From: an uncultured Gemmatimonadaceae bacterium
GTDB taxonomy: Bacteria; Gemmatimonadota; Gemmatimonadetes; Gemmatimonadales; Gemmatimonadaceae
Assembly (NCBI GenBank): GCA_963829055.1
Contig: CAWHHI010000016.1
Coordinates: 832,001-896,000 of the forward strand
Reading direction: 5' to 3'
DNA: 64,000 bases
Position numbers and translations under genes: made by a program. Positions 806 through 20,022 of this stretch are shown in pieces. The notes under the pieces were generated by a model, which was given only the letters and a program-made list of their open reading frames with translations, made no database searches and had not been told where the DNA came from. How positions within the stretch are numbered: position 1 is the first letter of the stretch; every line of letters begins with the position of its first letter.

Positions 806-844
806 GTTGCTTGGATTCCCGATTCCCGATTCCCGATTCCCGAT
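768..844. repeat. Inverted heptamer arrays (GGGAATC)4 ... (GATTCCC)4
   Basis: Read directly; the arms are reverse complements around a short spacer. Confidence 0.9.
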
Positions 845-1692
845 CAGTCCGGCGTCCCTCCGGCTTCCACGCGAGCCAATACCTCTGCGCACCGCTTTCC
901 CCATGGATTGAACTTGTTCGCCGCCGCACCGGCGCGCCAAGCCTCGCGCGCGTCATCCGGTTGTTCGGCCAACCAATGCGCACGACCGAGCTCGTAGTAC
1001 GCCTCGAGGAGGTTCGGGCCAAGCGAGAGGCTCTTCCGGAAAAACGTCTGCGCGTCCTCGTACATCTCGCGCTCGAGGTACACGAGACCGAGGTAGTAGT
1101 GCGCGTACAGCGTCGCTTTCGCGTCATTGTCGAGGCGGATCGCCTTCGACAGGTGCTCGATGGCCTCGCCGAAGATGCGCTTCTTCAGACAGATGTACCC
1201 GACGTTGATGCGCGCCAGCGCGTTCGCCGGCTCCTTCATCAGCACGCGCTGGAAGTTCATCAAGGCGTCGTCGTACTTCTCCTGATGCATCTGCGCCCAG
1301 CCGAGCAGCGAGATCGCCTGCGGATCGTTAGGCGAGAGCTCCAGCGCCTTGCCCAGCGCCGCCTCGGCGGCCGGGTAGTCGCCGAGCGAGATGCGCGACC
1401 ATCCTTTCTCGATGAACGTGGATGCGCCAATGTGATCGGCACGCAGCGGTGGGGCGACGGGTTGCGGGCCGGTCGGATACGCGGCACCGCCCGCCGTTTT
1501 CCACCGTTCCGCGAGCTTCTTCACATCCTCTTTGAGGGCCGCGAGCTCGGTGATCTCGCGCTCGACGCCGCGGAACAGCTCGATGATCTCCGCCTTGAGC
1601 GCGGCACGATCGGTCGACGCGTCGGCGGCATCCAGGCGCGCCGACAGTTCGGCATATCGCGCACGCAGGTCGCCGGCGGGCACGTCAGGCAT
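844..1692 (-). CDS. TPR repeat protein with N-terminal coiled coil
   Basis: ORF 844..1872, likely start ATG 1692 (MPDVPAG). Multiple TPRs (AISLLGWAQM, ARINVGYICL, AHYYLGLVYL, AYYELGRAHW). Confidence 0.8.
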   Translation of the reverse strand: MPDVPAGDLRARYAELSARLDAADASTDRAALKAEIIELFRGVEREITELAALKEDVKKLAERWKTAGGAAYPTGPQPVAPPLRADHIGASTFIEKGWSRISLGDYPAAEAALGKALELSPNDPQAISLLGWAQMHQEKYDDALMNFQRVLMKEPANALARINVGYICLKKRIFGEAIEHLSKAIRLDNDAKATLYAHYYLGLVYLEREMYEDAQTFFRKSLSLGPNLLEAYYELGRAHWLAEQPDDAREAWRAGAAANKFNPWGKRCAEVLARVEAGGTPD

Positions 1693-2170
1693 TCCGTGCC
1701 GGCTCCTCCGACGGTCGCTCGAGCACGATGCGCTCGTCAGTTGAAAACAGGCGTGGCACATCGAGAAATATGACCAGGCGCTCCCCGCGACGCACGACAC
1801 CGCGCAGGTAGCTCGCGGCGAGGCCGCGGAACAGCGTTGGCGGCGGAGCGAGCCGCGCGGCGTCGAGCACACTCACGTCCAGCACGCCGTCTACCGTTGC
1901 GGCAACCCACTCGTCATCGACGGTCAGCACGAGGATGCGCGCATCGCTCGGAATGGGCGCAGCGGGCAGCTCGAACCGCTTGCGCAGATTGATCACCGGG
2001 ACGACCCGCCCCTGATAGTCGATGACGCCTTCGATCCAGGGCGGGACGTTAGGCACCGGCGTCGGTGCTGCATAGCGAAGCACGCGCTCCACCGAGAAGA
2101 TGTCGGCGGCGAACAGCTCGTCGCCGAGGCGGAACGTCACGATCTGTGACGCGGTCGCGGGTGCGGTCAT
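1685..2170 (-). CDS. cheW: Chemotaxis coupling protein CheW
   Basis: IVTFRLGDELFAADI ... VPNVPPWIEGVIDYQGRVVPVINL CheW signature. Confidence 0.9.
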   Translation of the reverse strand: MTAPATASQIVTFRLGDELFAADIFSVERVLRYAAPTPVPNVPPWIEGVIDYQGRVVPVINLRKRFELPAAPIPSDARILVLTVDDEWVAATVDGVLDVSVLDAARLAPPPTLFRGLAASYLRGVVRRGERLVIFLDVPRLFSTDERIVLERPSEEPARNA

Positions 2171-2883
2171 AACGAGTCCGGTGAAGCGACGGCGAGGCAG
2201 GTGTCCACGACGACATCGGCGTCGAGCAACGTCACGAGCTCGGTGCCACGCCAGACGACACCGAGCACCATGCCGTCGGCGTCAGTATTGGGTACCGGGC
2301 GCACCGTGTCGAGGGACACATCGAAGACGTCATCGACGGCGTCCACGGCCAGCGCTATCCGTGTGGCCGAGGGACGCATAACGAGCGTCATCGTGGGGCT
2401 GCCCATCGACGGGACGGCGAGCACTCGCGCGAGCGCGTACATGGGCAGGGTGCGGTCGCGCAGCGCGAAGATCCCGAGCATCGCCGGGGGAGCGTCGGGG
2501 ATGGCGCGGGCGTCCACGCCCTCTACAGCCTCCTCCACCGCTCGGAGCTCCGTGGCGAACAGCTCCAGCCCTACGCGAAACACGAGTAGATCCGCGTGCC
2601 CCTCCCGCGCCGCAATACGTTCGCGGAACGGCGTGACCGGCGCTGGCGGCGCCGCGAGCTCGAACGGCGGAAGCTCGGTATCGAACTCCTTCGGTCGAGG
2701 CTGCCCGTTGTTCAGTGAGAGTGCCAACGTGCGCAGCGTCATCCGAGCCGCGTGGTCGGCGCGGCTCAACGCTCCCGGCCCGCGCTCGGAGGGCGCAGGG
2801 ATCGCGAGGACAGGCTCGTGGGGGGTCTTTCGACGGAGGCGTGGCATTACCTCAAAGGACAGTCGTGCGATAGGACGCGTCAC
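2167..2883 (-). CDS. cheW: CheW-domain protein with N-terminal extension
   Basis: LLVFRVGLELFATEL ... IPDAPPAMLGIFALRDRTLP; about 95 aa precede the domain, start uncertain. Confidence 0.8.
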   Translation of the reverse strand: MTRPIARLSFEVMPRLRRKTPHEPVLAIPAPSERGPGALSRADHAARMTLRTLALSLNNGQPRPKEFDTELPPFELAAPPAPVTPFRERIAAREGHADLLVFRVGLELFATELRAVEEAVEGVDARAIPDAPPAMLGIFALRDRTLPMYALARVLAVPSMGSPTMTLVMRPSATRIALAVDAVDDVFDVSLDTVRPVPNTDADGMVLGVVWRGTELVTLLDADVVVDTCLAVASPDSL

Positions 2884-2916
2884 GGGTGACGCCTGGCGGC
2901 GGATGTCCTGCGTGAC

Positions 2917-3990
2917 CTATGCCACACTCGCGCGCGTTCGACCGACCGCGGCGCTGATTTCCGCACCGATGTCCGCGAGCGGCAGCATCCGATCGGCGCC
3001 CGCCGTCGCCAGTGCGGCCTGCGGCATTCCATACACGATCGACGTCGCCTTGTCCTGCACGATGGCGTACCCTCCCCTGTCGCGGATCGCCCGGAGACCC
3101 TCCGCGCCATCACGCCCCATGCCGGTGAGCACGACGCCGACGACTCGCGCGCCGAAGCGCTGGGCCGCCGACCGGAACAACGGATCCGCCGAGGGGCGGA
3201 CCCCCCAGATGGGAGGCGTCTGATCCAGCGCGATCACCGGAGCTCCGGACACGTCGATGACACGCATGTGCATGCCGCCAGGCGCGACGTACACGCGCCC
3301 GTGCTCGATCCGGTCACCGTGGCGTGCTTCCGTCACGCCTAACGCGCTCATCGCGTTGAGCCGCGTCGCGAGGCTGGTCGTGAAGCCGGCCGGCATGTGC
3401 TGCACGACGAGCACCGCGGCATCCATGCCAGCCCGCAGCCTCGGAATCACTTCCGCGAGCGCACGCGGTCCGCCGGTCGATGCCGCGATGACGACGGCCT
3501 GCGTCGCCGCACCGCGCTCGACGAGCGTCGCGCCTCGCTGGACGAGGGACGGGCGTGCGAGCATCGGCACGCCGCGGAGGTTCACGCATGACGCAGCGCG
3601 CAGCGCATCCAGCAAGCGCGCGCCGAGCAGCTCGGCGGTGTCGCGCGCCGACCCATTCGGCTTGTGCACGAAATCGACGGCGCCGAGCTCGAGCGCGCGG
3701 ATCGTGAGCTCTCCACCGTTAGGCGAATCGAGGGCGCTCAGCATCACCACGGGACGCGGCGTCTCGCTCATGATGTAGCCGAGCGCCTGGAGGCCGTCCA
3801 GCTCGGGCATCTCGATGTCGAGCGTGACGATCTCGGGGTCGAGCGCGTGGATCTGCTTCAGCGCGTCATGGCCATTGCGTGCCGTGCCGACGACGCGGAA
3901 CTCGCCGCTCGTCGACAGAATCTCGCTGACCATCTTCCGCATGAACGCACTGTCGTCGACGACAAGGACAGTGCGTGGACTAGAGGACAC
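2917..3990 (-). CDS. cheB: Chemotaxis methylesterase response regulator CheB
   Basis: Receiver VLVVDDS...TLDIEMP; catalytic motifs ASTGGP, VQHMP, LTGMGRDG. Confidence 0.95.
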   Translation of the reverse strand: MSSSPRTVLVVDDSAFMRKMVSEILSTSGEFRVVGTARNGHDALKQIHALDPEIVTLDIEMPELDGLQALGYIMSETPRPVVMLSALDSPNGGELTIRALELGAVDFVHKPNGSARDTAELLGARLLDALRAASCVNLRGVPMLARPSLVQRGATLVERGAATQAVVIAASTGGPRALAEVIPRLRAGMDAAVLVVQHMPAGFTTSLATRLNAMSALGVTEARHGDRIEHGRVYVAPGGMHMRVIDVSGAPVIALDQTPPIWGVRPSADPLFRSAAQRFGARVVGVVLTGMGRDGAEGLRAIRDRGGYAIVQDKATSIVYGMPQAALATAGADRMLPLADIGAEISAAVGRTRASVA

Positions 3991-4498
3991 GCTCTCCCAT
4001 CTTGAGCGACTTCACGACCACGCGGCCATCCGTGACGTGGAAGTACACGCTCCGCCCGTGCTCACCGCCCGTGTCGGACGCGACGAGGGGAATCTCGGCC
4101 AGCCGAAGCACGCGCTTCGTGGCTTCGACGTTACGCTCGCCCATGTTGATACCACCGGACGGCAGCAACGACGCGAACATGCTCGCGCCGCCTACGATCT
4201 TCGCCATCGGCCGCCCCCAGGCGCCGCGCTTCCGCATCTCCTCGACGAGCATCGGGATTGCCGTCGACGGGAACTTCGCGCGGTTTTCGCTGTCGAGCGA
4301 AAGCCCTTCGCTGGGGAGCAGGATGTGCGCGAGACCACCAATCCGCGACGAGCCGTCGTAGAGCATGATGGCCACGCACGAGCCCAACCCGATGGTCGAG
4401 ATGATCGATTCGCCGTTCGCCACGGCGTAGTCGGCGACCTTGACCCGGATCTCCTGCACTTTCGGATCGGTCACATTGGGCTCATTCACGTTAGGCAC
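3980..4498 (-). CDS. cheD: Chemoreceptor glutamine deamidase CheD
   Basis: TIGLGSCVAI, GGLAHILLP, AKIVGGASMF, MGERN, DTGGEHGR. Confidence 0.92.
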   Translation of the reverse strand: MPNVNEPNVTDPKVQEIRVKVADYAVANGESIISTIGLGSCVAIMLYDGSSRIGGLAHILLPSEGLSLDSENRAKFPSTAIPMLVEEMRKRGAWGRPMAKIVGGASMFASLLPSGGINMGERNVEATKRVLRLAEIPLVASDTGGEHGRSVYFHVTDGRVVVKSLKMGERVL

Positions 4499-4500
4499 GG

Positions 4501-5319
4501 CTACCGGCGACGAAAGATGCGCTCACGCGGATCGACTGCGGCGAACAGGGAACGAGTCGGGCCCAACAACGTTTCGACCTTACCGAGAATCAGAAAGCCA
4601 CCCGGCGCCAGCGCATCGTAGAAGCGCTGGAAGAGATGCTCCTGCGTTGCACGGTCGAAGTAGATCAGGACGTTACGACAGGTGATGAACTGCATACCGC
4701 CCGGAGACGGATCGACGATCAGATCGCGCCGCTCGAACGACACGAGCGGCCGCACCTCCGGCACGACCTCGAACGGCGGTCGCAGGGAGAAGTAACGGCG
4801 TCGGATATCATCGGGCGTATCGGCGAATGCAGCCTCGGCGAACTGCCCGCGGCGCGCAGCCTCGAGGCTCGCGCGATCGATGTCCGACGCCAGCACCTGC
4901 ACGCGCGACGCGTCGGCCGTTTCACCCCGCATCGCCGCGTGGCGATGCAGCAGAATTGCCAGCGAGTACGGCTCTTCGCCCGACGAGCAGCCCGCGCTCC
5001 ACCCACGGATGGGACGCGTAGCCCCCTCCCAGAGTATCGGCACCACGAGGCGCGCCATGGCATCGAACGTCGACCAGTTTCGGAAAAGTTTGGTGACGTT
5101 AATGGTCAGCGTATCGATCAGCCGTTCGTACTCGACGGCGTCGCGATCGAGGAGCGCAGCGTAGTCGGAGAACACGTGAACGCCTCGCGCGCGCATGCGG
5201 ACGGCAATGCGGCGCCGGAGGCACTTCTCCTTGTAGCTCGAGCAGCCGAACGCGCGCTCGCGGGCGATCTTTGCCGTCAGCGCGGCGAATCCGGCGTCAT
5301 CGACCTCGGTCGTCATCAT
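4501..5319 (-). CDS. cheR: Chemotaxis methyltransferase CheR
   Basis: TINVTKLFR, WSAGCSSGEEPYS, CRNVLIYF. Confidence 0.95.
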   Translation of the reverse strand: MMTTEVDDAGFAALTAKIARERAFGCSSYKEKCLRRRIAVRMRARGVHVFSDYAALLDRDAVEYERLIDTLTINVTKLFRNWSTFDAMARLVVPILWEGATRPIRGWSAGCSSGEEPYSLAILLHRHAAMRGETADASRVQVLASDIDRASLEAARRGQFAEAAFADTPDDIRRRYFSLRPPFEVVPEVRPLVSFERRDLIVDPSPGGMQFITCRNVLIYFDRATQEHLFQRFYDALAPGGFLILGKVETLLGPTRSLFAAVDPRERIFRRR

Positions 5320-6933
5320 CCCGAGGTTCTCGCCGTCTCCAGATTCGTGCGCGCAATCGCATTCGTCGGCTCGAGCTCGAGCGCGCGCTTCCAGCAGCGG
5401 TTTGCTTCTTCGCGCTCCTGCCGGCGATACCGGAGGTTGCCGAGCTTGAGGTAGACGTCGGCGCCAAGGTTCGGGCGGTGCTTCACGGCGCGGAGGTAGG
5501 ACTCGAGCGCGTCGTCGTAGCGGCCCGACCGGTAGTAGCTGTCGCCGAGATTCTTGTGCAGCTGCGGCAGCGTCGCGTCCTCGAGCGCGCCTCGCTCGAA
5601 GGCCACGGCGGCATCCGGGTTCCGGCCGCGACGCTCGAGGGCGACGCCGAGGTTGTTGAGCAACACCGCCGAGTGCGGATGCGCACTCACACCATTCGAT
5701 AGCAAGGCGATGGCGCGATCGATGTCATTTGCCAGCGCCGCGGTGAGCGCCGCGTAGTGGAACCACGCCGCGGGCTTCGGCCGACGATCCCAGAGCGCCG
5801 CCGCGTCGTTCATCGCGGCGTCCGCCTCGGCGATGTCGCCGCGCCGCAGCGCGAGCACGCCCGCCGCGAGACGCGTGCGTGGATCGTGACCGCCGACGCG
5901 AACGGCCTGCGCCAGCACATCGGCCGCTTCGTCGTACCGTCCGAGACGCTCCAGCGCGTACGCCAGATTGTGATAAACGGCCGGATTGATCGCGCGGCGT
6001 GACACCATCTGCTGGAACAGCGTGACGCCGTCCTGCCATCGCCCCTGTCGCAGCAGCACGAGTCCGGCGTAGAACGTCGCGAGCTCATCGCCCGGACGCA
6101 GCTCGTTCACGCGCCGGAATTCGCGCACGGCTTCGTCGAACATGCCGGCCTTGTAGAACGCGACGCCCAGGTTGCGATGCTCGGCCACACGCGACTCGGA
6201 CGTGACAGCTTCGACGGGCTTCGTCCGACCGACGCGGTGCAGGAAGCCCGCGGTGATGAGACCGTACAGCGCTTTCCCGACGTCGAACTCGCACGAGCCC
6301 GGATTCGTCCACGAGACCGGTGACATCGCGCTTGCCGTCGACGAGCGAGACGAGCGTCTCCTGCTCCGCCGTGAGCGTGGGGGCGCTGTCGGCGAGCCTG
6401 ACGCGATCGACCTCGAAGACGAGGTCGAAGCTCGGAATCTTCTTCTCGATCAGACTCCATTCGTCCACCCGTCGCGCGCCTTCGAGCAGCAGCGACTCTG
6501 GATTGATGGAGACGAGAAAGTCCTGCTCGTCAGGCGCGACGTCCGCCTCGAAGTTGAACGTGCCCTGATTCCACGTGAACAGGTAGAACACCGCCTCTTC
6601 GATCTGCAGGCGGATGTAGCGATGCAGTTCCTCCCGTGCGATGAACTCGCGCTCGACGAGGATCTCGCCGAGCCGCGTGTCGCGCTGCGTGTTCTGTCCG
6701 GCGACCGCCTCGTCGAGCTGCGCCTGGGTGATCAGGCCATTCTTCACGAGGATGTCGCCGAGTCGATCGCGGCGGTTCACGATCGACGCGTAGCAGATGC
6801 GACCCTTGTCGAAATAGATGTAGCCGAAGCTCTGGCGATGGGTGACGCTCAGGCAGCCGCTCTTCTTGCCCATGGAGAGCAGCTGCAACACGTCCGGGAG
6901 ACTCGCCTCGCTGAGGCTTCCCTTGATGGCCAT
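5316..6933 (-). CDS. DUF4388 (PATAN)-MshEN-like-TPR protein; one indel near 6295
   Basis: N-terminal [19 protein letters not shown] ... LLLEGARRVDEW (ORF 6085..6933) continues as EFDVGKALYGL plus TPRs (ORF 5316..6326). Confidence 0.8.
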
Positions 6934-8855
6934 CAGCGCAGTTCCTCGATGACACGGCCATCCAGATCAGGCCATTCCATCACGATCTTTTCCGCGTCGA
7001 GGAACGACTTGTCCCCGATGGTCGGGACGGACACCGGCGTGGCGGCGCCACCGGAGTTGAGCTCACGCCTAACGATGGACATGGTGATCGGCCCGCCAGC
7101 GGCGCGCGCGGAGTGGGCGACGCGGTCGACGACCGACTCCACCTCGCCAGCACCCGACACCGGCAGCTCGGCGAGTAGCGCCGCCACGCCAGGCTCGGCG
7201 TCAGGCGCTCGATCCATGAGCATGCGCGAGTACAGCGCCTCGCGTAGCGTGCGATCCGGCGGCTGGATCGCGACCACGAGGCCGCCGTCGAAGCGCGACC
7301 GAAGGCGCGCCTCGAGCTCCCCGATCTCGGACGGTGGCCGATCGCTCGCGAGCACGACCTGCCGACCCGCGCTGTGAAGCGCGTTGAACAGGTGGAACAG
7401 CTCTTCCTGCGATCGCTCTTTCCCCGCCAGCGCATGGACGTCATCGACGATGAGCGCGCCCGCGGCGCGATAGCGCGAGCGCCACCGGTCGACGGTGCCT
7501 CCCTGTAGCGCGGCGATCAGCTCATCGACGAACTGCGAACCGCTCACGCACGCGACGGGGCCCGACAGCCCTTCCTTCCGACGCAGCGCGTTGCCGACGG
7601 CGTGGACGAGATGCGTCTTGCCCACGCCCGGGCCGCCGTGCACGAACAGTGGATTGTACTGCGAGCCGGGCGCGTTGACAGCCGCGTCCGCGGCGCGCAG
7701 CGCAAGCTGATTGGACTTGCCCGCGAGGAGTGTCTCGAGCGTGTAGGCTGGCCACGGAGCAGGCGGTGGATCGTGAGCGGCGATCGCCTGCTCGACACGC
7801 ACCTCCGCTTCCGCAACGCGCTGTGGGTCGCGAAAGACGTCGAGGCCGGCGAGTCGCGGATCCAGCAGCACGGCCTGCGCCTCGAGTTGTTCGAGACGAG
7901 TCACGCCGCTCGCGAACGCGGCGTCGAGCGCATCCACGTCCGCTTCTTCGGTCAGCGAGAGCGCGCGGTCCAGCATCGTCGTCCGGTAGCCAGCCTTCTG
8001 CCAGTGTGCGATACGCTCGCCGAGTCGCACGCGCCACCCTTCGACGTGCTGGGCGACAGCGACCGCGATGTCCGACAGGAAACCAGCAAACTCGTCGCTC
8101 GCCCCGGGTGTCGCACCGCCGAACTCGGGCGTCACGCGCGCCCCGGAAATGATCGCCCGGACGTTCGCGGGCGTCACGGTGCGCTCGCCTAACGCTTCGT
8201 GGGCCGCCAGCCGGTTGAGCGCGCCCTGCAGCTCGCGCACGCTGCCGCACGGCAGGCGCGCGAGCTCCTCGAGCACACCATTCGCGAACGTCATCTCCCG
8301 TTCCGCGCACTTGTTGCGGAGAATCGCGACGCGGGTTTCGTATTCCGGCAGGCCGATGTCCACGATCAACCCACCGGCGAGGCGCGTCACCAGGCGCTCG
8401 TCGACGTCGGCGATCTCCGACGGAGGCCGATCGCTCGCCATGATGATCTGACGCCCACTGCCCTGCAGCGAGTTGAAGATGCGGAGCATCTCGCTCTGCG
8501 TCTCGCGGCGGCCGGTGAGGAACTGGACGTCATCGAGCAGCAGCAGATCGACGCGCTGGTACAGCTGCTTGAACGCTTCCGCGTGGCCGGCGGAAATCGC
8601 GATGTGGAGTCGGTCGACGAAGTCATCGAGCGGCACGTACTCGATGACGAGCTCCGGCTGCAGCTGCTTGGCGGCGAACCCGATGGCGCCGATCAGGTGC
8701 GTCTTGCCGAGGCCGGACGGGCTGTAGATGAAGAGCGGGTTGTACGTGGCTCCGGGCGACTCCGCGACGGCGCGGCCGGCCGCGACCGCGAGGCGGTTCG
8801 ACGCGCCGACGACGTAGTTGTCGAATCGAAATCGTCCGTCCAGGAGCAGACTCAT
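6933..8855 (-). CDS. Tandem DnaA/Hda-type AAA+ ATPase without DnaA DNA-binding domain
   Basis: Two modules: [34 protein letters not shown] and [30 protein letters not shown]. No DnaA domain I or IV seen. Confidence 0.85.
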
Positions 8856-9469
8856 CGTCCCACGGCCACACTCGGCGCAGTGGTCCCGCTCAGGCGGCGC
8901 AGCACGAGCTCCGAAATGCTGCGCAGCGTCTCGAAGACGCCGGTGCCGCGAAGGGCATCGCCGGCGTGAAAGGGCACACCACGAAAGTTGATTGCATCGT
9001 CGAGCTCATCGACATCCACGATGAGCTCGCGAGGCAGATCCTGCTTGTTGTACTGGATGACGAGCGGAACATTCCGCGCGTCAATGCCCTGCTCCGCCAG
9101 ATTCGCGTGCAGGTCCTGCATGCTCTCGATGTTCTCATCGAGCTGGCGCCGCTGACTGTCTCCGACGAACACGACGCCGTCCGCGCCCTGCAGCACGAGC
9201 TTGCGCGTCGTCGCATAGTAGACCTGGCCGGGCACCGTGTACAACTGAAAGCGCGTCGTGAAGCCCGAGATCATCCCGAGGTCGAGCGGCAGGAAGTCGA
9301 AGAACAGCGTGCGGTCGGTTTGCGTCGCGAGCGAGACCATCGACCCTCGGCGCTCGGCCGGCACCTGGTTGTAGATGTAGTGCAGATTGCTCGTCTTGCC
9401 CGAACGGCCCGGCCCGTAATAGACGATCTTGCAGGTGATCTCGCGCGCGGCGTAGTTGACGAGGGACAT
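8852..9469 (-). CDS. mglA: MglA-family small GTPase
   Basis: [48 protein letters not shown]. Confidence 0.92.
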
Positions 9470-9471
9470 GG

Positions 9472-9945
9472 TCAGATCCTGTCCGAACAACTTCGCCAGG
9501 TTGCGGTTGAGGTCCGACTCGAAGTCCACGAGACCCGGCGCGACGCTCGCGATCGCGGCCGATGGCGTCGCCGCGGCGAGGCGCGCGCCCAACTCCTTGA
9601 AGTAGAGCCGCACGAGGCCGATCGAGGTGGTGTCGTCGAACACGGTCAGAAGAATGTGCGCTCCACGCGCCGTTGGTAGCTCGCCAAGGAATATTTGTCG
9701 CTGGTTCCCGGGATGGTGCATCGTGGTGAATGCGGCTGCCATCGAGCTGCCGTCCGATCTCCGATCCGGTCGCGTGAATCGCCGCGGCGAGCGCGCAGGC
9801 GGACATGACGTCGATGCGAACGGGTGAACCCGTGTTGGGCAAGCACGCGTCCACTCGACTCGAGCAGCAGCACCAGCCTAACGCGCGAATCGTCGATGAA
9901 CCGGAGCAGCGGCTGCTCCATCCACTGCTCGACGGCGATTCTCAT
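9472..9945 (-). CDS. mglB: MglB-like roadblock protein (GAP partner); split by indels
   Basis: Joined frames: [16 protein letters not shown] / [14 protein letters not shown] / [18 protein letters not shown]; lies directly upstream of mglA. Confidence 0.75.
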
Positions 9946-9955
9946 GATCGCACGC

Positions 9956-10306
9956 TCACGTGAGCGCCCTCGCGGCGCGCATCATCTCGACCCGCAGAAG
10001 GCCGATGTTCGCGCGCGCTTCCGAGATCGTCACCAGCACGAGGTCGTCGCGGCCGGCAGCACAGATCCCGCCGCGTTCCGCGTCCAGGCGCAGGAACGTG
10101 ACGGTGCCACAACCGGCAGCACCACACGCGAGACGTGCCTTGCGATGCAGCGACGCAGCCAGCGCGGCGACGGCCTCGGCCTGGACGCCGATCTGCACGT
10201 TGGAGTCGATCGAGAGACCGTCGCGCTCCGAGACCACGAAGCTTCCCACCACGCCGCGGTGACGGGAGAGCATCGACAGGAGCTCCGCGTAAGGCGTCTT
10301 GTTCAT
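9956..10306 (-). CDS. Roadblock/LC7 domain protein
   Basis: GVVGSFVVSERDGLSI, AVAALAASL, ANIGLLRVEM. Confidence 0.8.
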   Translation of the reverse strand: MNKTPYAELLSMLSRHRGVVGSFVVSERDGLSIDSNVQIGVQAEAVAALAASLHRKARLACGAAGCGTVTFLRLDAERGGICAAGRDDLVLVTISEARANIGLLRVEMMRAARALT

Positions 10307-11290
10307 GACACCCTCGCGAGCCAGTCACGCGCGCGGCCGAGCGCGCGGTCCAGCAGCAATCGCACGAGACCGACTGGCGTCTGCCGCGATGCGGCGACGA
10401 CGAGCAGGCTGCCCAATGGCGCGGGCGTCATGGCGACGACGGCGGCATCGGCCTCGACGAGCAACGACGTCCACGCACCGAGGCCCAGATGGCGCATCGC
10501 GCGCTCCGCCTCGCTGCTCACCCCCGCCAGCTCGGCTGCAACGATGTCGGCCACGTCGTGGCCGTTCGCGTCCTGGTACGAGCCCGCGAGCACGAGACCG
10601 TCGGCATCCACCAGCAACGCGGTCTGGTCGGGTCCCTCGAGCGCGGGAACGAACAGCTGTCGCGCGCGAGTGGGGTCGGGTGCGGGGTATTCAGGGATCG
10701 CGAACGGCGCAGCGGTTGACTGGTGCGCGCACATCACTCGAAACGGACGGCTCCGCCGGCCGTCGTGAGACGATCGCGTCAGGCGGCGAAGGCATCGATA
10801 CCTCAGCAGGCATTGCCTCCGCAACCATCGTGTGCGCACCGTTGGCCCGTACGCCGTTCGACGCGGTGTTCGCCACATTCGCGGCCTGCGAGCCCCGCGC
10901 GAATCGCACGTGCGCCAGTGCCGCAGCGACCGCGGGGTTCTGCCCGTCGGCAGCGGAGGACGAGAGCCGCCGTTCGGCACTCTCGAAGTCGCCGCGTCGA
11001 AAATCAACGAACCCGAGCCCGAGGCTCGCCTGCGCGTGCGACGGATCCAGACGCAACGCCATCTCCCACTCGTCGGCCGCGCGCTCGACATCACCACGGT
11101 CCGCGTGAATACGCGCTAGCACATCGTGCGCGTCGGCCAGATACGGATGGCGATCCAGGCCACGCAACGCAACACGCAACGCGATATCGAGCTGTCCCGC
11201 GCGACGCAGCGCATCCGCGAGCGGCAGGAACACGAGGCTCGACGGATCGCGCGCCAGGTCATCGCTCAGACGACGAATCTCGTCAGCCAT
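10303..11290 (-). CDS. TPR + C-terminal roadblock/LC7 protein; indel near 10720
   Basis: N-terminal DPSSLVFLPLADALRRAG TPRs; C-terminal ALLVDADGLVLAG ... TPVGLVRLLL. Confidence 0.75.
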
Positions 11291-12432
11291 CATCGACTCC
11301 CTTGAGCAGCGCGCGCAGTCGGACCACACAGTCGAGCATCTCGCGGACGCGGGGCACAGCCGGCCGATCGCCCGCCTCCATCAAGTACCGCTGCCACGAC
11401 AGGATCGCCTGGTCCATCCCCGCGCTGCGCGCCGCGGTCGCGCCAAGCGCGAGCAGCACCTCGGGGTTGCGCGGCTCGATCTGCGCCGCGCGGCGGAGCG
11501 CGTCCAACGCCTCGGACTCGCGCTCGAGCCGCATGAGCGACCGCGCGACAAGCACCTGCGGCTCGGCGCGCGTGGGCGCGGCGCGACTCGCTGACATGGC
11601 GGCCGCGAGTGCCTCGTCGAGGCGTCCGTCGCGAAGTGCCTGACGCGCGAGCTCGATGTGCGGCGCCGGATCATCGCCGGGAAGTGGCTCGACGATCGCG
11701 AGCTTCTCCGCCGACCCGGACCTGAATGATGCCGGTGGAAAGCAGACCGTACGCGATCTTCGCGACGTCGAACTCGCTGCGTCCGAGGCGCATCGCGATG
11801 CCGCGCAGATCGGTCTGGCCGTCGATCATCGCCAGCATCTCCCACTCGTTCGGCAGCAGATCCAGCAGCGACGGATGATCCTCGTCGATCGGCGCGAGTA
11901 CGGGCACGACCGCGAGATTCGGGATCTTGTGCGAGATACGAGCCCACTCATCGATGCGTCGAGCGCCTTCCATGAGGAGCGACTCCGTGGAGATGCGCGC
12001 CACTGCCTCCGTCGTGGCGTCAGAGGACGGCCCCTCGACGAACGAGAAGAATCCTTCCTGCCACGACATGAGCTCGAAGACGACCGTCTCGATCTGGCGT
12101 CGCACCTGCCGCTCCAGCTCGCGCCACGTTAGGCAGCCGGCCTCGACGAGCAGCTCGCCGAGCCGCTTGCCGTCGGCGCGCTGCGCCTGCGCCGTGCGCG
12201 CCCGCTCGAGGTCACCCTCCGAGATCTTCCCGGCCTTCACGAGCAACGCGCCGAGTGGATGCGGGTTGGTGCGGATGGAGGCGGACACGACACGGCCCGA
12301 TTCGAAGCTCACGATGCCTTCGTTGTCGCGCAACGCGGACGTCACGCGCAACGACCCCGTCTTCCGGCTCAGGTCGAGCAGCTGGAAGACGTCATGGATG
12401 CCGAGCTCGCGGAGCGGTCCCTCGATCGCCAT
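11283..12432 (-). CDS. DUF4388 (PATAN)-MshEN-like-TPR protein; indel near 11700
   Basis: MAIEGPLRELGIHDVFQLLDLSRKTG ... LLMEGARRIDEW ... EFDVAKIAYGL; TPR tail in ORF 11283..11597. Paralogous to 5316..6933. Confidence 0.8.
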
Positions 12433-15278
12433 TACGCGGCTGGCTCCCGTGCGGCGAAGATCCGTTGCAGGTCGGTGGCCGTCCGCGTGTCTCGACGCGC
12501 ACGCCGCGCGTACTCGCTCGCGGGCTCGAGGTCGACGACTCTGCGCCAGCGATCGATCGCGTCACGGTATCGGTGTTGATCAGCCGCCAACACGCCCTCG
12601 AAGTACAGGGCGCCCACGTGTTCCGGATCGAAGCGCAGCACGCGCGCGAACGCGACGGCGGCGTCACTGCGTCGCGTGCTCTCGAACAGCGTCTCGCCAA
12701 GCGATGTCAGCGCGTCGAGATTGTACGGGTCGCGCTGCAGGAGATCAACGAGCAGCGACATTGACTCCGCGTGGCGCTGCAGTCGGCGGCGCAGCGACGC
12801 GAGCGCGAGCGCTGCCTCGGTGTACGTGGGCACCGAGTCGAGGGCCGACGCGAGCTCCTGCTCGGCGTCGGCGTTCAACCCCTTCATCTCCAGAATCGTC
12901 GCCAGCTGGTACCGCACGACCGCAAAGTCAGGATCGAGCGTGAGCGCATGACGATACGCCTCGATCGCACTCTCGAAGTCGCCGATGGATCGCGCGACGT
13001 CGCCGATCTGCTTCAGTACGTCGGCTCGCGCAGGCGCACCACGACGCGCTCGCTCGAGCGCCTCGAGTGCCGCCGCGGGATCACCACCGTCCGCACGAGC
13101 GGTTGCCGCGAGTATCAGCATCTCCGACATCGGTAGGCGACGGCGCTCAACAGGTCCTCGGCCAGTGGACGCGCTTCGGCGCCGCGCCCAAGCATGATCA
13201 GCACGCGCACCTCTCCCGCGGTGGCGCGCCGAGCGGCGGGAGACGCGACACCGGACGCATCGGTCGCCGCGGAGCGGGCGCCGCGATACCGCTCCAGCGC
13301 TTCGCCGTACGCACCCTGCTTGGCGAACACGTCGCCTAACAACGTCAGCCCCTCCACCGCTTCGCCGCCACGCCCCAGCACTCGGCTCGCTTCCGCGGAC
13401 GCGCGATCGAGCAAGCCTTTCGACAAGTAGTCGGCAGCAGCCGAATACGGGGTGCCCGCCGGAGTGGGCGGCACGGGAGTGGGGGCGACAGGCGCGAGCT
13501 CGGTGAACAACGAGTCGAGCACGCCGATGTCAAACGCGAACTCCTCGACTGATCCGTCGGTGCGCTTCTCGCCGCCGAGATCAGGCACGATCGCGAACTG
13601 TGGATCCTCGAACTCCAGGTCGATCGCGAGCTCGAACTTCTGCTGCACGTAGTACGGATCGATTTCGAGCGCGCGCTTCGTCGCCTTGAGCGCACCCTCG
13701 TAATCGCCGAGGTTCGAAAGCACGAAACTGAGATTGTAGTGCGCCTCGGCGTAGTTCGGCCTGGCCTGAATGGCGCGGCCGTACGCGTTGCGGGCGTCCT
13801 CGAGCTTCTTGAGCTCGACGAGCACGAGCCCCACACCGTTCCAGGCCATGGGCTGTTCGGGCTCGAGCTGAAGCACCTGACGATACGCCTCGAGGCATAA
13901 CGGCAGACGCTTGTTCTTGAACAGCAGGAGCGCGAGGTTGAGCCGCGCCTTGATGAACGACGGCTGCGCCTTGAGCGCGAACCGGAACGCCTCGACCGAT
14001 GCCTCGGCGTTGCCGATGTGATACAGCGCGACGCCGAGGTTGTTGAGACCTAACGCGTACTTCGGATCGCACGCCACGCCGCGCCGGTAACTCTCGGCGG
14101 CTTCGGCGTAGCGGCCGTCCTGATGGAGCGCGATGCCGCGTTCATTCCAGAGCTTCGGGCTGTCCGGACGCGTCGCGAGCAGCTTGTCGTACAGCTGCGC
14201 GGCCATCGCCGGCTCCTTCTTGAGCAGGTGCACCTCGGCCATCGCCTGCAGCACCAGCTCCGCGTCCTCGCCTCGGTCGGCCGCGAGGCGGTATTCGCGA
14301 AGCGCTTCGGCGTAGTAGCCCTTCTGACGGAACGCGAGACCGAGGTTGAAGTGCGCGAGCTGTCCTTCCGGCGCGACGGCCATCTCGCGATCCAGCGCGC
14401 GCGCCGCGCGTTGGGCGACGACGGCTTCGTACGTCTGCGGCGTACTGCGGTCGAGCGACAGATTCGCGTGCGCACGGGATAGCGCGGGATTCAGCTGAAT
14501 CGCGCGCTTGGTCGCTTTCTGCGCTTCGTCGTGACGCCCCATGTCACCGAGCACGAAACCGAGCAGGTAATGCGCGTCGGGATTGTCGGGGGCGAGATCG
14601 ATGGACCGCTTGAGTGCGTGCAGCGCCTCGTCGTTCAGCCCTCGGTTGTACAGCACCTCGCCGACGTAGAACTGGATGACCGCGCTCTGCGGATCGATCG
14701 CGAGCGCGCGGGCGAACCAACGCTGCGCCGTCTCGAGGTCGCCGCTTCCCTTCTCAGCGAGTCCGAGCTGGACGATGGCGCCGATGTCGTCGGGATAGAA
14801 GCGCAGGAGGTCGGTGAACTCCGCGACGGCGTTGTCCACCTGGCCGAGGAGCGCGTACGTGCGGCCGAGCTCCCAACGGGCCTCGCGGTCGTCGCCGTGC
14901 AGCCGCAACCGATCGCGCAGCTCCGACACGCGGCGGTCGTAGTAGCCGGTGTTGAAATAGGCGATCTCGAGATTGCGCTGCGCGACTTGCATTTTCGCGT
15001 CGAGCTCGAGCGCACGCGAGAATGCGGCGACGGCCTCGCCTAACAAGCCCTTGTTGTAGTAGAGAACGCCCAGGTTGTTGTGCGCGCCGGCGTCCGAGGG
15101 ATCAATTCGGCGGGCGAACGAGCGGAGGACGTCGCGGTCGCGCTCGGACGTCAGCTGAGCGTTGGGGACTGGCACTGGGGACTGGGGACTGGGGACTGGG
15201 GACTGGGGACTGCTGCTCGACGAACGAGCAGACGTCGGTTGCGAACAGGTCGTCAGCAAGGGAGTCGGGAATCGTCAT
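12432..15278 (-). CDS. Large multi-TPR protein (~950 aa); indel near 13130, start uncertain
   Basis: ORFs 13115..15259 and 12432..13130 are mostly TPRs (AHNNLGVLYY, AHYLLGFVL, AWNGVGLVL, AHYNLSFVL). Confidence 0.8.
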
Positions 15279-15354: not shown

Positions 15355-15975
15355 TCATCCCAGACGAACCGCCCTGAGAATCGCCTGAAGCGATGCCACG
15401 TCAGGCAGCAGCAGGAAGAATCCGCGCAGACGCTCGTGCAGGTCGTGCATGTAAAACTCGCTCTCGACGCAGAACACGTAGTCGCGGTCGGTGCCGAACT
15501 GCAGATACGCGGTCGTGAGCACCGCGCTCGACATGTCCACGGCGAGACTCGGCGGCGAGGGCAACAGCATCAGCCCCATGAAGTCGCTCAGCGCATTCAT
15601 GTACGCGCCACTCAGGATGTTGCCCGCTTCCTTGATCGCGGACTGCTCGAGCTCTCCGAGCTCCTTGGACGTCCCAGCTGGCCGACGCAGCATCAGCTCC
15701 GAGAGCCTAACGGCGGTCGACTTCGGAAACACGAGCAGCGTGCGCCCGGTGAGGTCGCCCATCATGTGCATGAGCACCGCGGCGACCGGCTCTTCCGGTC
15801 CGGAGATTTGCGGCGGGACATCCTCGAGCTTGGCGATCGTGATCGTCGGCACGCTGATCATGATCGTGCTGCCGGTCATCTGTGACAGCGCAGTCGCTGC
15901 GTGACCGGCGCCGATGTTCGCCACCTCGCGCAGCGCGTCCACTTGGACCGGCTTCAGATCCCTCAGGTCGTTCAT
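15355..15975 (-). CDS. cheC: CheY-P phosphatase CheC
   Basis: DALREVANIGAGHAATALS and SAIKEAGNILSG motifs. Confidence 0.93.
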   Translation of the reverse strand: MNDLRDLKPVQVDALREVANIGAGHAATALSQMTGSTIMISVPTITIAKLEDVPPQISGPEEPVAAVLMHMMGDLTGRTLLVFPKSTAVRLSELMLRRPAGTSKELGELEQSAIKEAGNILSGAYMNALSDFMGLMLLPSPPSLAVDMSSAVLTTAYLQFGTDRDYVFCVESEFYMHDLHERLRGFFLLLPDVASLQAILRAVRLG

Positions 15976-15985
15976 TCGCGCTCCG

Positions 15986-17940
15986 CTAAAAGAGACTGCT
16001 CACATCGAGGATGAGCGCCGGAACCCCGTCGCCGAGGATCGTCGCCCCGCTGAACACGGAGAGACCGTCCCGCACCGCATCGAACGGCTTGATGACGATC
16101 TCCTGTTGTCCCGTCAATTCGTCCACCACCATTCCGGCGCGCCGGTCGGCCACCTCCAATACGACGACTTGGCCACCCCCCGCGTCGCGCCTTGGTAATC
16201 GGACCACGTCGCGGAGATGCATCAGGGGCAGCACATCGCCGCGGAGCACGAGAACTTCGGCCCCCTTCACGTGGCGAATCGTGTTCGCCTCCAGGTGCAC
16301 GGTCTCGTTGACGTGCGTCATCGGAATCGCGTACGTCTCATCACCAACCTTCGCCAGCAACGACCGCACGATCGCGAGCGTCACGGGCAAACGCACCGTC
16401 ACGGACGTCCCCTCGCCTTTGGTCGAGCGGATGTCCACGGTGCCGCCAAGCGCTCGCACTCGGGCATGCACCGCGTCGATGCCGACGCCGCGACCGGAGA
16501 GGTCGGTCACCTGTCTTGCCGTCGAGAACCCGGGGCGTGCAATGAGACGAACCAGCTCGTCATCCGTGAGCTCGGAGCGGCTCGCGTCCATCAGCCCTAA
16601 CTCCTTCGCACGAGCGAGCACGCGGTCGCGGTCGATGCCCTTGCCGTCATCCGTGACGCGGATCACCACCGCGGACCTGTCGCGCGCCGCGGTCAGCGCG
16701 AGCCGCCCGGTTGGAGACTTGCCCGCCGTCGACACGAACGTCCGGCGCTTCGAGGCCGTGATCGATTGCATTCCGCAGCAGATGCACCACAGGATCGCCG
16801 ATCTCATCGAGCAGCGAGCGATCGAGCTCGATCTCCTGGCCTGAGACCACGAAGTCCACCTGCTTGCCCAGCGCGCGTGCGGCATCGCGGACGACTCGCG
16901 GGAATCGATCGAACACCTGCCACACCGGCACCATGCGACTCGTCATGATGCCGTCCTGCAAGTCAGCCACGAGGCGCGATGCCTGCGTGACGGTCTCCGT
17001 CAACGCCGGCTCGTTGATCGTGGCGGCGAGCTGCTGCAGTCGGCCCCGTGTGATCACGAGCTCGCCGATGAGGTTCATCAGCGTGTCGAGGCGGTGGAGA
17101 TCGATGCGGATGTGTCGGTGTTGCCGCGCCGGCGCAAGCTCGCTCGCGCTGCCCGCCGAGATCGGGAGCAGGTCGGGCAGGTCACCGTTAGGCACGGTAG
17201 CCACGTGTCCGTTCGTGCTCGGTGCCGCCCGCGTTATCACGATATCGGCGACGTAGCCGGCTGCCCGAAGCGCGCGGTCGATCTCGTCATCCGGTGCCGA
17301 CGTATCGAGCCCAATCGTTAGGCGTCCAGCGAACGCCTCGTCGCTGAACGTGCTCGGATCAGGCGTGGTGCTCACGACGGTAGCGAGTGCCCGCGCGCGC
17401 TCGAGCACGAGATACGCACGAACGCCTGGCATCGGCGTGTTCGCCTCCTGCGTGACCACGACCGTGACCGGGGCGACGGCGCTCGCGGCGGCGCGCCTGG
17501 ACGAGCGCTTCTTCCGCGGCTTTGCCGTCGCTGTCGGTGCCGGCGAGTGGACGGCTGGGTTCCGTCGCGGCCGCGGCTCTCAGCGCCGCGATGGTCGTAC
17601 TCGCATCGACGTCCGATTCGCGTCCCGCGACCGACAGCTCGATCGCGCGCTCCAGCATGTCGGTGGCGGCGAACAGCGTGTCCATGAGCGGCGCCGAAAC
17701 AGCGCGCTCGCCGCGTCGGACGAGATCGAGCAACGTCTCGAGCTCGTGGGACACCTCGGCGACGACGGCGTAGCCCATCGTCGCGCTCATCCCCTTCACC
17801 GTGTGCACGGCGCGGAACAGTGCGCCGACCGGCTCTCGCGCCGTCGGCGTTCGTTCCAGCTCGAGCAGCGCGTGATTGATCGCCGAGAGATTGTCCTGAC
17901 TCTCGGTCAGGAACAGCTCGGCGTACCGGGAGGTGTCCAC
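15986..17940 (-). CDS. cheA: Chemotaxis histidine kinase CheA; split by indels
   Basis: Hpt FRAVHTVKGMS; dimerisation LDTLMNLIGELVI; HLLRNAIDHG; DDGKGID; GFST..SGRGVG; C-terminal CheW-like P5. Confidence 0.92.
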
Positions 17941-17980
17941 GGAAAACGCTCAGCGATGAGCGTTCAGAGCGCGATGCGGC

Positions 17981-18343
17981 CTATCCGAGCACGCGCTGCA
18001 CCGCTTCCAGCACGCGACTCGGCTGGAACGGCTTGACCACGAAGTCCTTCGCGCCAGCCTGAATGGCCTCGACCACGAGCGCCTGCTGGCCCATCGCGCT
18101 GCACATGAGCACCTTCGCCTGCGGATCGAACTTCGTGATCTCGCGAACGGCGTCGATGCCGCCCATGTCGGGCATCACGATGTCCATCGTGACCAGGTCG
18201 GGTCGAAGCTGCCGGTATTTCTCGACCGCCTGCACGCCGGTCTCCGCCTCGCCGATGATCTCGAATCCCGCCTGCTGCAGGATGTCGCCGACCATGGTAC
18301 GCATGAAGATCGCGTCGTCACAGATCAAAACGGTATGGCTCAC
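17981..18343 (-). CDS. cheY: Single-domain response regulator CheY
   Basis: VLICDDAIFMR, LVTMDIVMP, CSAMGQQ, FVVKPF. Confidence 0.92.
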   Translation of the reverse strand: MSHTVLICDDAIFMRTMVGDILQQAGFEIIGEAETGVQAVEKYRQLRPDLVTMDIVMPDMGGIDAVREITKFDPQAKVLMCSAMGQQALVVEAIQAGAKDFVVKPFQPSRVLEAVQRVLG

Positions 18344-18425
18344 GTTCCACTCCACACCAAAGGACGGGACGATTCGTACCACGTTATGCAGCGACAGATC
18401 TCGACGATGTCTCGCCGGTACTCAG

Positions 18426-18507
18426 GTCGTCAGTCGTGAGTCCTAAGTGATCAGTCGTGAGTCCCAGGGACTGACAACTGATGACAGACGACTGATGACT
18501 GACAACT
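18426..18507. repeat. Degenerate inverted heptamer hairpin (CAGTCGT / GACTGAC type)
   Basis: gtcgtcagtcgtgagtcc...tcagtcgtgagtccc followed by gggactgacaactgatgacagacgactgatgactgacaac. Confidence 0.7.
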
Positions 18508-18560
18508 TGTCACTCGCCATGCTGACTCGCGTTCTGTCTCTGATGCAACCACTGGTGCAG

Positions 18561-19019
18561 TCACGCCATTACTTGCCGTACGACCGCGGGGATCTCGAGT
18601 ACTATGACGACTCCGTCGTCCAGATGTCCCAAACCGCGCACGATTCCGCCGCGTGCCAGATCACCCGTCGCGGCCTCGAAGCGCTCCGGCGGCATCATCT
18701 GCACGTCGCGCACGTCATCGACCGCCAACCCGACCTGTTTGGTGCCGAATTGGGCGAGCACGATGGACCCGTCGTCTGCGCACGTCGACCCCGCGAGCCG
18801 AGTCGCCAGATCGATTACCGTGACGATGGCGCCGCGGAGGTTGACCAGTCCGCGGACGTACGCCGGGGCGCCCGGGAGCCGGGTCGCATGACGGATCGGA
18901 ACGATCTCTCGTACCGCCGCAATGTCACAGCCGTACACCGTGCCCGCCACCGCGAACAACAGCAGTCGGAGTGCGCCTGTGTGATTCGCGTCAGTCGGTG
19001 CTGTCGCTGTAGAAGCCAA
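18561..19019 (-). CDS. cheW: CheW
   Basis: LLLFAVAGTVYGCDI, LPGAPAYVRGLVNLRGAIVTVIDL; probable TTG start. Confidence 0.88.
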   Translation of the reverse strand: MASTATAPTDANHTGALRLLLFAVAGTVYGCDIAAVREIVPIRHATRLPGAPAYVRGLVNLRGAIVTVIDLATRLAGSTCADDGSIVLAQFGTKQVGLAVDDVRDVQMMPPERFEAATGDLARGGIVRGLGHLDDGVVIVLEIPAVVRQVMA

Positions 19020-20022
19020 AGTGGTCGAGCGGGTCCGGGTGACTCTCGAGCGCGGGATCTCCGGCCGCCGCCGCGAGTGACCGTCTGAGGTCCTCGGGAA
19101 GCGGTGCACGAAGGTCCATCGATTGCCCGGACACCGGATGCCGAAAGCGCAGCCAGGCGGCGTGGAGAAAATGCCGTCGTGCCGACAGCGCCATCAGTCG
19201 CCGACCGCCGCCGCCACCGTACGTATCGTCGCCGACGACCGGATGGCCGACCGACGACAGGTGTACGCGAATCTGATGCGTGCGACCGGTGTGCAGGTTC
19301 GCGCGCAGGAGATCCGTCGCATCGAAGCGGGCGAGGCGGAGAAAGTCCGTCTTCGCCGACCTTCCGGTAGTGACGATCGCCATCCGCGTTCGGTCTCGCG
19401 GATCACGCCCGATCGGGGCGTCGACGGTCAGCGTGTCCCCGTCGATGTGGCCCCACGTGAGCGCGGCGTAGCGTCTGATCACTCGCCGGTCGGCAATCGC
19501 CTTGCTCAGCACGCGGTGAGCGCGCTCACTCTTCGCGACGAGCAGCAGGCCTGACGTGTCCTTGTCCAGCCGGTGCACGATCCCAGCGCGATCGGCGTCA
19601 CCCGACTCGGCCAGTTCGTTCCCGCGCCCCATGAGCGCGTTGACGAGCGTCCCGGTCCAGTTGCCGGGAGCGGGGTGCACGACCATTCCAGCAGCCTTGT
19701 TCACGACCACGAGATCGTCGTCTTCGAACACGACGTCGAGCGGGATCTGTTCCCCGACGATGTCTCGAGATGGAGGCGCAGGCACGTCGACAACGACGAC
19801 ATCGCCAGCGACTGCGCGGTAGCTCGCGCGAGCGAACTGACCGTTGATGGTCACGGCGCGATTCGCGATGAGCGTCGCCGACTGCGTTCGTGAGATGCCA
19901 AGCCGGCCGGCGATGAACAAGTCGAGGCGAACATTGCTGTCCGCCTCGACTGTCAACTCGTGGTGTGCGCCGCGACCGGCCGAGCTGGCGCCGATCGGCG
20001 TGCCCGGACCGGAGTCGGTCAT
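18991..20022 (-). CDS. rluD: RluA/RluD-family pseudouridine synthase
   Basis: S4 domain RLDLFIA, VVNKAAGMVVHP, HRLDKDTSG, TGRTHQIRVH. Confidence 0.92.
   Translation of the reverse strand: MTDSGPGTPIGASSAGRGAHHELTVEADSNVRLDLFIAGRLGISRTQSATLIANRAVTINGQFARASYRAVAGDVVVVDVPAPPSRDIVGEQIPLDVVFEDDDLVVVNKAAGMVVHPAPGNWTGTLVNALMGRGNELAESGDADRAGIVHRLDKDTSGLLLVAKSERAHRVLSKAIADRRVIRRYAALTWGHIDGDTLTVDAPIGRDPRDRTRMAIVTTGRSAKTDFLRLARFDATDLLRANLHTGRTHQIRVHLSSVGHPVVGDDTYGGGGGRRLMALSARRHFLHAAWLRFRHPVSGQSMDLRAPLPEDLRRSLAAAAGDPALESHPDPLDHFGFYSDSTD

Follow-up and report, generated by a model that had tools for sequence, protein, structure and literature searches.

A DnaA-derived tandem ATPase encoded between mglA and a PATAN-MshEN-TPR gene in Gemmatimonadaceae: a candidate self-pairing switch

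What would a protein made of two DnaA ATPase domains do beside the gene for an MglA-type small GTPase? The question is raised by a stretch of 64,000 nucleotides from an uncultured Gemmatimonadaceae bacterium (hereafter the window; assembly GCA_963829055.1, contig CAWHHI010000016.1, positions 832,001 to 896,000), which encodes such a tandem protein, P0001. A first-pass annotation of the sequence had proposed a repurposed initiator-type ATPase coupled to mglA and acting as a scaffold or switch, or else co-polymerising with true DnaA. The answer to which we give about an even chance is that P0001 is a self-pairing DnaA-derived ATP switch, which would dock through two short elements, motif A and the C-terminal tail, on the product of the downstream gene, a PATAN-MshEN-TPR protein, and tune an MglA/chemosensory module likely steering type IV pili. 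The repurposed switch or scaffold of the first-pass annotation fits this evidence.

Pfam assigned two Bac_DnaA stretches to P0001 (E 5e-106) and no Bac_DnaA_C. The Walker A motifs SPSGLGKT (aa 45-52) and GGPGVGKT (aa 407-414) and the Walker B aspartate pairs (aa 108-109 and 471-472) are all as previously described. By sequence, each module belongs to DnaA domain III (E 1e-51), and the two share 36% identity across 210 aa. Domain III begins at residue 5, and no domain I was found; the start is common to orthologues and is fixed by the mglA stop, which it overlaps (ATGA), and the P0001 stop in turn overlaps the start of the downstream DUF4388 gene (TGATG). The open reading frame (ORF) lies on the minus strand; the plus strand across the gene is interrupted by stops. 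In a structure model built from 44 sequences (mean predicted local distance difference test score, pLDDT, 85), two DnaA-like domains are joined by a helical linker; residues beyond 601 are of low confidence, which argues against a folded C-terminal helix-turn-helix. The best fold matches of the model were DnaA domain III (Z 31, root mean square deviation 1.7 Å for module 1 against the B. subtilis domain). The whole genome (7.8 Mb, 86% complete) contains three Bac_DnaA matches, two within the P0001 gene and one in a canonical dnaA on contig C3 (G000:C3, ~529800-531250), which also bears the sole Bac_DnaA_C match. The first-pass annotation had suggested a domain search and a phylogeny, and had regarded its reading as lost if this were the only dnaA of the genome. 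With domains I and IV missing and a true dnaA on another contig, P0001 is not the normal initiator, and modules 1 and 2 fall in clades separate from true DnaA.

Residues of the DnaA filament interface are given in two groups in passages of PMC6669920. B. subtilis numbering was transferred from an ungapped alignment to 8btg, and residues were counted in a set of 68 tandem proteins, 66 of them distinct and without one single-domain fragment, for comparison with 30 DnaAs. We take the two groups to be an arginine-finger face (R202, R206, H231, R264, L269) and a nucleotide face (E183, F218, G317, R321), and D248 and R313 to be sensors I and II. Module 1 keeps the four nucleotide-face residues in 67, 66, 67 and 67 proteins, against 4, 1, 42 and 50 for module 2; the five arginine-finger residues are kept in 66, 65, 47, 68 and 68 copies of module 2, against 45, 6, 0, 61 and 68 of module 1. 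The ATP site of module 1 is nearly invariant (Walker A 67, Walker B 68, sensor I 68 and sensor II 67 of 68), whereas module 2 keeps sensor I in 23 proteins and has lost its lid in 16. Module 2 retains the single-stranded DNA (ssDNA) residues I190, K222 and E223 (65, 54 and 62 of 68), I190 being found in no copy of module 1 and K222 in one. The outward faces are degenerate on both modules (module 1: R206 6/68, H231 0/68; module 2: F218 1/68, E183 4/68), and P0001 does not combine the two filament faces with I190/K222 in a single module. P0001 itself shows F112, G211, R215 and D77 at the F218, G317, R321 and E183 positions of module 1, where the ssDNA residues are substituted (H84, R116); its module 2 retains I447, K479 and E480, and its second ATP site is relaxed (A475, S440, and G570 at the sensor II position). 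Upon addition of cluster representatives (99 tandem proteins), the pattern persists at lower levels (F218, 74 in module 1 vs 2 in module 2; R206, 10 vs 88).

Natural losses of module 2 bear directly on the partner of module 1. Fifteen proteins consist of module 1, linker and tail without module 2, and in the tree they branch in several parts of the module 1 clade. Face residues of module 1 are kept at 28/52 positions in these forms vs 345/382 when module 2 is present, control positions at 329/382 vs 2607/2723; of 37 positions, none has decayed more than G317, F218 and R313. Decay of this kind speaks for module 2, and against DnaA, as what module 1 pairs with, because DnaA remains when module 2 goes. 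The sequences thus point to modules pairing with each other instead of co-polymerising with DnaA. The co-polymerisation proposed earlier also sits badly with the two degenerate outward faces and with the Hda-type clamp motif QL[SD]LF, which occurred in none of 44 aligned proteins (incidental QLLL-type matches lie in helices of 5/44; we take the pattern to be that of Hda). Face pattern and decay alike would be compatible with pairing within one chain or between chains and do not tell which. Single-module orthologues had been named as evidence against the first-pass reading; this evidence exists in part, in these 15 proteins, to which come 13 genomes without any ATPase module described below.

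The constant partner of the ATPase gene is the downstream PATAN-MshEN-TPR gene, not mglA. It follows directly in 29/29 and 10/10 loci long enough to show that side. Among 80 loci examined, 31 hold the tandem-module family and 49 are ordinary dnaA loci; mglA lies directly upstream in 27/28 family loci showing that side, does not accompany the gene in L030, L127 and L128, and is missing in 6/6 single-module loci of other classes (L115-L120). The mglA coupling of the first-pass annotation hence holds for most loci but is weaker than claimed, and the permanent link to mglA that would mark an MglA effector or regulator was not found. In those six other-class loci, what comes after the single module is only the partner's TPR half (best domain 104-166 bits, vs at most 65 for the other TPRs of the cluster), and neither PATAN nor mglA was found in their genomes. 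L115-L120 belong to two families, and their single, more worn DnaA-like module has an acidic end directly before the TPR half. A tandem MshEN motif is present in the partner, for which c-di-GMP binding is predicted (L005 orthologue: NF053729 53 bits vs a cut-off of 38); the motif is worn in one Gemmatimonas-related clade. One clade of loci (L007-L016, L021, L023, L024) lacks mglB and the roadblock genes in the cluster and has kept mglA, with a worn partner MshEN. Most genomes of the order in our panel have a second mglA elsewhere, which is retained when the cluster copy is lost.

Loss of the ATPase leaves a short remnant. Twelve genomes of the order gave no linker match and a single Bac_DnaA match; 8 of them keep the partner gene, and in 8/8 of these an ORF of 60-86 aa occupies the place of the ATPase gene and consists of motif A, the helix that opens the linker, and the tail. 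Seven abut the partner start and one is set off by a short spacer. A profile of the 8 mini-proteins recovered the tail (E 1.4e-7) and motif A (E 0.002) in our genome, with no other match below E 0.01 in the whole genome. It matched 133/151 family genomes (a tally that includes G155 and G251) and gave 5 new full-length matches (which do not include these two), 5/5 being mini-ORFs before the partner, for a total of 13 genomes without either ATPase module. The partner MshEN is lost in 11/13 of them. Such ORFs could easily be overlooked by gene callers, and at L137:9988-10089 (+) a short 15-base tandem repeat is inserted between mini-ORF and partner gene. Silent and replacing codon changes were 7:0 in one pair, 21:21 in a distant pair and 7:22 in a third, which covers 59 codons compared without gap alignment. 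The combination of motif A, linker and tail-like motif is seen as well in L172, an unrelated protein, where no TPR gene adjoins and the tail is not at the stop. Further members of this family, whose N-terminal domain weakly resembles the C-terminus of the Fe-hydrogenase large subunit, are P0228, P0254, P0270 and P0210; relatives of the N-terminal part lie at G000:C3:454123-454854 and G000:C16:356397-356891.

Relatives of P0001 are labelled Gemmatimonadota. The linker profile matched 135/201 genomes of the phylum (our own genome and G155 included). Within the order, its three families gave 27/38, 95/97 and 3/3; other orders gave 9/45 and other classes 0/17. A Bac_DnaA check of 75 chosen genomes found only true dnaA in 11 genomes of our own family without linker match (96-100% complete), a diverged tandem gene in G076 and G178 although the linker was not matched there, and one extra single DnaA-like module in each of 6 genomes of other classes. 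Replication genes never adjoined the tandem-module gene in the loci examined.

In the switch that we propose, module 2 would lend R521 to ATP bound on module 1, and the two modules would form one closed DnaA-like dimer and no filament. Closing and opening would alter how far apart or how exposed motif A and the tail are, and these two elements would bind the TPR half of the partner. A second input would arrive as c-di-GMP on the partner's MshEN motif, and the output would be pilus polarity.

Pairing might instead occur in trans, module 2 of one copy sitting on module 1 of the next, to give an ATP-dependent chain or ring that would act as a polar scaffold showing many tails to the TPR partner. 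Complementary faces and their decay without module 2 fit this arrangement as well as pairing in cis, and a helical linker of ~95 aa, whose relatives are repeats of long helical proteins, is maybe too stiff for closure in cis. Yet an ATPase-less mini-protein stands in the same place in 13 genomes, so that a polymer would not be needed for the core role, and we consider pairing in trans unlikely. A role in replication appears improbable: P0001 would cap DnaA oligomers or, Hda-like, give the module 2 arginine to DnaA-ATP, joining polarity signalling to initiation. This would not explain why the acceptor face of module 1 decays upon loss of module 2 though DnaA is still present; both outward faces are degenerate, the clamp motif was not found in the 44 aligned proteins, the gene was never beside replication genes in the loci examined, and 11 near-complete genomes of the same family do without it. 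What such a role could invoke is the donor face and the ssDNA residues kept by module 2, and the lack of a separate Hda-type Bac_DnaA match in the genome (86% complete).

The third possibility concerns the tail, which with the mini-ORFs might be kept mainly for translational coupling of the partner gene, the ATPase acting on another protein such as MglA, whose gene is directly upstream in 27/28 loci. The first glutamate of the tail EE is encoded by GAG in 28/28 orthologues, vs 883/1329 elsewhere in the same genes, so that part of the tail would be a ribosome-binding site; a Shine-Dalgarno-like core lies in the last 21 bases in 28/28, and stop and start abut or overlap in 28/28. However, the ribosome-binding site includes neither motif A nor the W, P and R of the tail, which are conserved as protein while their codons change silently, a tail-like motif is found inside L172 away from the stop, and mglA is the neighbour that gets lost. 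We give this explanation very little credence. The acidic tail of the first-pass annotation stands as written, except that its EE also carries the likely ribosome-binding site of the next gene.

Several points weigh against the self-pairing switch. The predicted template modelling score of the P0001 model is 0.50, and the relative position of the modules is not fixed. Module 1 retains R264 (61/68) and module 2 retains Walker A and B (64-65/68), so that further contacts are possible. The sequences compared are kin and not independent; in the comparison of forms with and without module 2, some control positions decay too, and fragments make up several of the rows. The mini form, and with it the loss of MshEN in 11/13 partners, may go back to one event, since a single origin of the first 8 is not rejected (approximately unbiased test, p 0.45), two origins being neither shown nor excluded. 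The tail EE is likely at least partly a ribosome-binding site. The tails of 6 distant single-module proteins are similar by eye only; the tail profile beat shuffles in 1/5 scored, and tail homology in these proteins was not significant. Finally, pilM is present in 62/70 panel genomes, so that the link to pili is weakly tested.

That panel consisted of 70 hand-picked genomes. All ATPase carriers (26/26), mini carriers (8/8) and single-module genomes (6/6) have pilM, and none of the 8 panel genomes lacking it has the ATPase or mini system. Our genome holds pilM and chemoreceptors, and flagellin was not found in it (86% complete). A flagellar link was considered and rejected: flagellin occurs in 10/26 ATPase carriers but in 6/6 genomes of a family that lacks the gene. 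PATAN regulators of Synechocystis reportedly act on the pilus motor. In Myxococcus, MglA with TPR proteins activates type IV pili (passages of PMC11580455). Pilus polarity is thus the likely, though weakly supported, output.

The cluster runs in the order cheW, cheY, cheA, cheC, TPR, DUF4388, roadblock, mglB, mglA, P0001 gene, DUF4388-TPR, cheR, cheD, cheB, cheW, cheW, TPR (Table 1). We take the small GTPase to be MglA on account of its mglB neighbour. Five regions contain split genes (5316-6933, 9450-9945, 10303-11597, 12432-15259 and 15986-17940); the true dnaA on contig C3 is split by frameshifts as well. These frameshifts are likely assembly indels rather than signs of pseudogenes, the close relative L005 being unsplit where it covers them. 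A recurring palindrome-like element, intergenic or in frame, was seen at ~690-800, 15170-15260, 22280-22520, 23560-23720 and 29370-29440, and translates for instance as 'DSRFPIPDSR'.

Table 1. Coordinates of P0001, its parts, its neighbours and related features (window positions unless a locus is named).
Feature	Position	Strand	Basis or remark
Tandem DnaA-domain-III protein P0001, 640 aa	6933..8855	minus	ORF list, translation, Pfam
Module 1, aa 5-237	8145..8843	minus	full ATP site K51, D108/D109, D142, R207
Motif A, amphipathic helix, ~aa 256-272	8028..8105	minus	mini-protein profile match; helix in model
Helical linker unit, aa 273-362, W..GY motif	7770..8039	minus	matches ~95-aa repeat of long proteins
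Module 2, aa 371-600	7056..7745	minus	R202/R206/H231/R264/L269 face = R459, R463, H488, R521, L526
C-terminal tail motif EK.V.EWP....R.IEE.R	6936..7004	minus	predicted unfolded alone; persists in mini-proteins
GAGGA within tail EE codons, likely ribosome-binding site of downstream gene	6943..6947	minus	
DUF4388 (PATAN)-MshEN-TPR gene	5316..6933	minus	two frames in this assembly; single 538-aa ORF in L005
MshEN-type c-di-GMP-binding motif inserted in partner's PATAN domain	6598..6774	minus	MshE 5htl E 5.7e-7
mglA-type small GTPase	8852..9472	minus	Ras/Arf-type matches; small_GTP for L005 orthologue
mglB-like gene (split in this assembly), roadblock gene, TPR-roadblock gene	9450..11329	minus	
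Second DUF4388-TPR gene and long TPR gene	11283..15259	minus	
cheC, cheA (three pieces in this assembly), cheY, cheW	15355..19109	minus	
cheR, cheD, cheB, two cheW, TPR gene at cluster end	844..5319	minus	
Mini-ORFs replacing ATPase gene	L133:10927-11145; also L132, L134-L139, L167-L171	plus (L133)	
Second family: domain weakly like Fe-hydrogenase large subunit C-terminus, motif A, linker, some with tail-like motif	L172:3363-5363	plus	

The linker has relatives of its own. Modelled alone, it is a helical unit (pLDDT 86); fold searches returned generic helical rods at best (Z 5.6) and no Foldseek match, which does not show a new fold, and neither a credible Pfam family nor a usable ESM Atlas match was obtained. 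Its profile matched 444 cluster representatives, and among the best 150 of these, 30 proteins have at least four copies of the unit. Several of these repeat proteins are labelled Thermoplasmata or Wallbacteria, the counterpart of the linker being a repeat of ~95 aa. Long proteins with 4-24 linker-like repeats include P0122-P0129, P0140, P0145, P0233, P0286 and others, as well as L140 and L141, and their ends or starts carry DnaA domain III, DUF835, KaiC-like or zinc-ribbon domains. Five of the repeat proteins with four or more copies, together with some relatives, end in DnaA domain III, and most of them have zinc ribbons. With the linker profile, a single repeat scores no more than 14-30 bits, so that homology of the linker with the repeat unit is likely and not certain.

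Seven Thermoplasmata-type repeat proteins (P0126, P0140, P0145, P0160, P0241, P0283, P0286; a taxon label exists for P0286 only) have, like P0001, DnaA domain III without domain IV and a unit matching the linker, in 4-8 copies. Unlike P0001, they have one module with nearly all DnaA residues kept and, in most, zinc ribbons at the end, and six of the seven modules group with true DnaA, not with modules 1 or 2, in the tree. A common origin with modules 1 and 2 is thus not demonstrated, and archaeal modules were not recovered as their sister in a quick tree that gave long-branch warnings. When the two metagenome loci of P0286 were compared with the window proteins by BLAST, no mgl, che or PATAN genes turned up next to it. 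Compared with the partner PATAN by hhalign, the N-terminus of these repeat proteins gave E 0.026 and a score of 17.6, close to the best of 30 shuffles (16.7).

Residues of a pocket by which DnaA captures dinucleotides are given in passages of PMC10721633. As a long shot, the interface of modules 1 and 2 may rebuild one such pocket, with R202, E228 and I190/K222/E223 putatively contributed by module 2, and E183 and an acidic residue 187 by module 1. P0001 would then be a one-pocket sensor of short ssDNA or of a dinucleotide, linear or cyclic; binding would gate ATP hydrolysis and be relayed through the tail to the c-di-GMP-binding PATAN-TPR protein, and domain III with the W..GY unit would be a signalling module common to Gemmatimonadota and Thermoplasmata.

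If P0001 works as proposed, DnaA domain III, known as a part of replication, appears to be re-used as a signalling switch in most of an order whose bacteria are common in soil. A naturally occurring DnaA dimer that stops at two units would be a simple system in which to study the contact between DnaA protomers and the hydrolysis step there. Nature also supplies a deletion series (two modules, one module, none) that leaves a 60-residue peptide and one TPR protein. In a phylum where the control of motility has received hardly any study, the system gives a handle on how signals from MglA, chemosensory proteins and c-di-GMP converge.

Our literature searches turned up no description of a P0001-type protein. 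Group 1 MglA/MglB modules count Gemmatimonadetes among their carriers, with PATAN neighbours noted (passages of PMC4316618); a DnaA-type ATPase is not mentioned in the main text of that paper (0 matches), and its supplementary neighbourhood table may list the gene under a DnaA label. In these modules, as in the MglA-SgmX TPR effector system of Myxococcus (passages of PMC11580455), MglA, roadblock, PATAN and TPR occur together, as here. What sets the present genes apart from group 1 modules is their place among che genes and the MshEN and TPR parts of the PATAN protein. With DnaA (PF00308, TIGR00362; PDB 8bv3, 8btg, 2z4r), both modules of P0001 share the sequence and fold of domain III. Databases mislabel the tandem protein as DnaA, because its summed score of 487 exceeds the TIGR00362 cut-off of 344. 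It differs from DnaA in having no domain I or IV, in its two modules, which divide the filament interface between them, in a module 1 without I190/K222, in its separate clades, in the true dnaA found elsewhere and in its absence from many genomes. Hda/HdaA and P0001 are both DnaA-like AAA+ proteins without domain IV, and module 2, as a putative arginine donor with a relaxed site of its own, resembles Hda. P0001 scores below the Hda cut-offs (162 vs 195), and the acceptor, which is DnaA-ATP for Hda, would likely be its own module 1. Judged from sequence, P0001 would belong to neither family and may work like a tethered pair of DnaA protomers, or like a DnaA with a built-in Hda.

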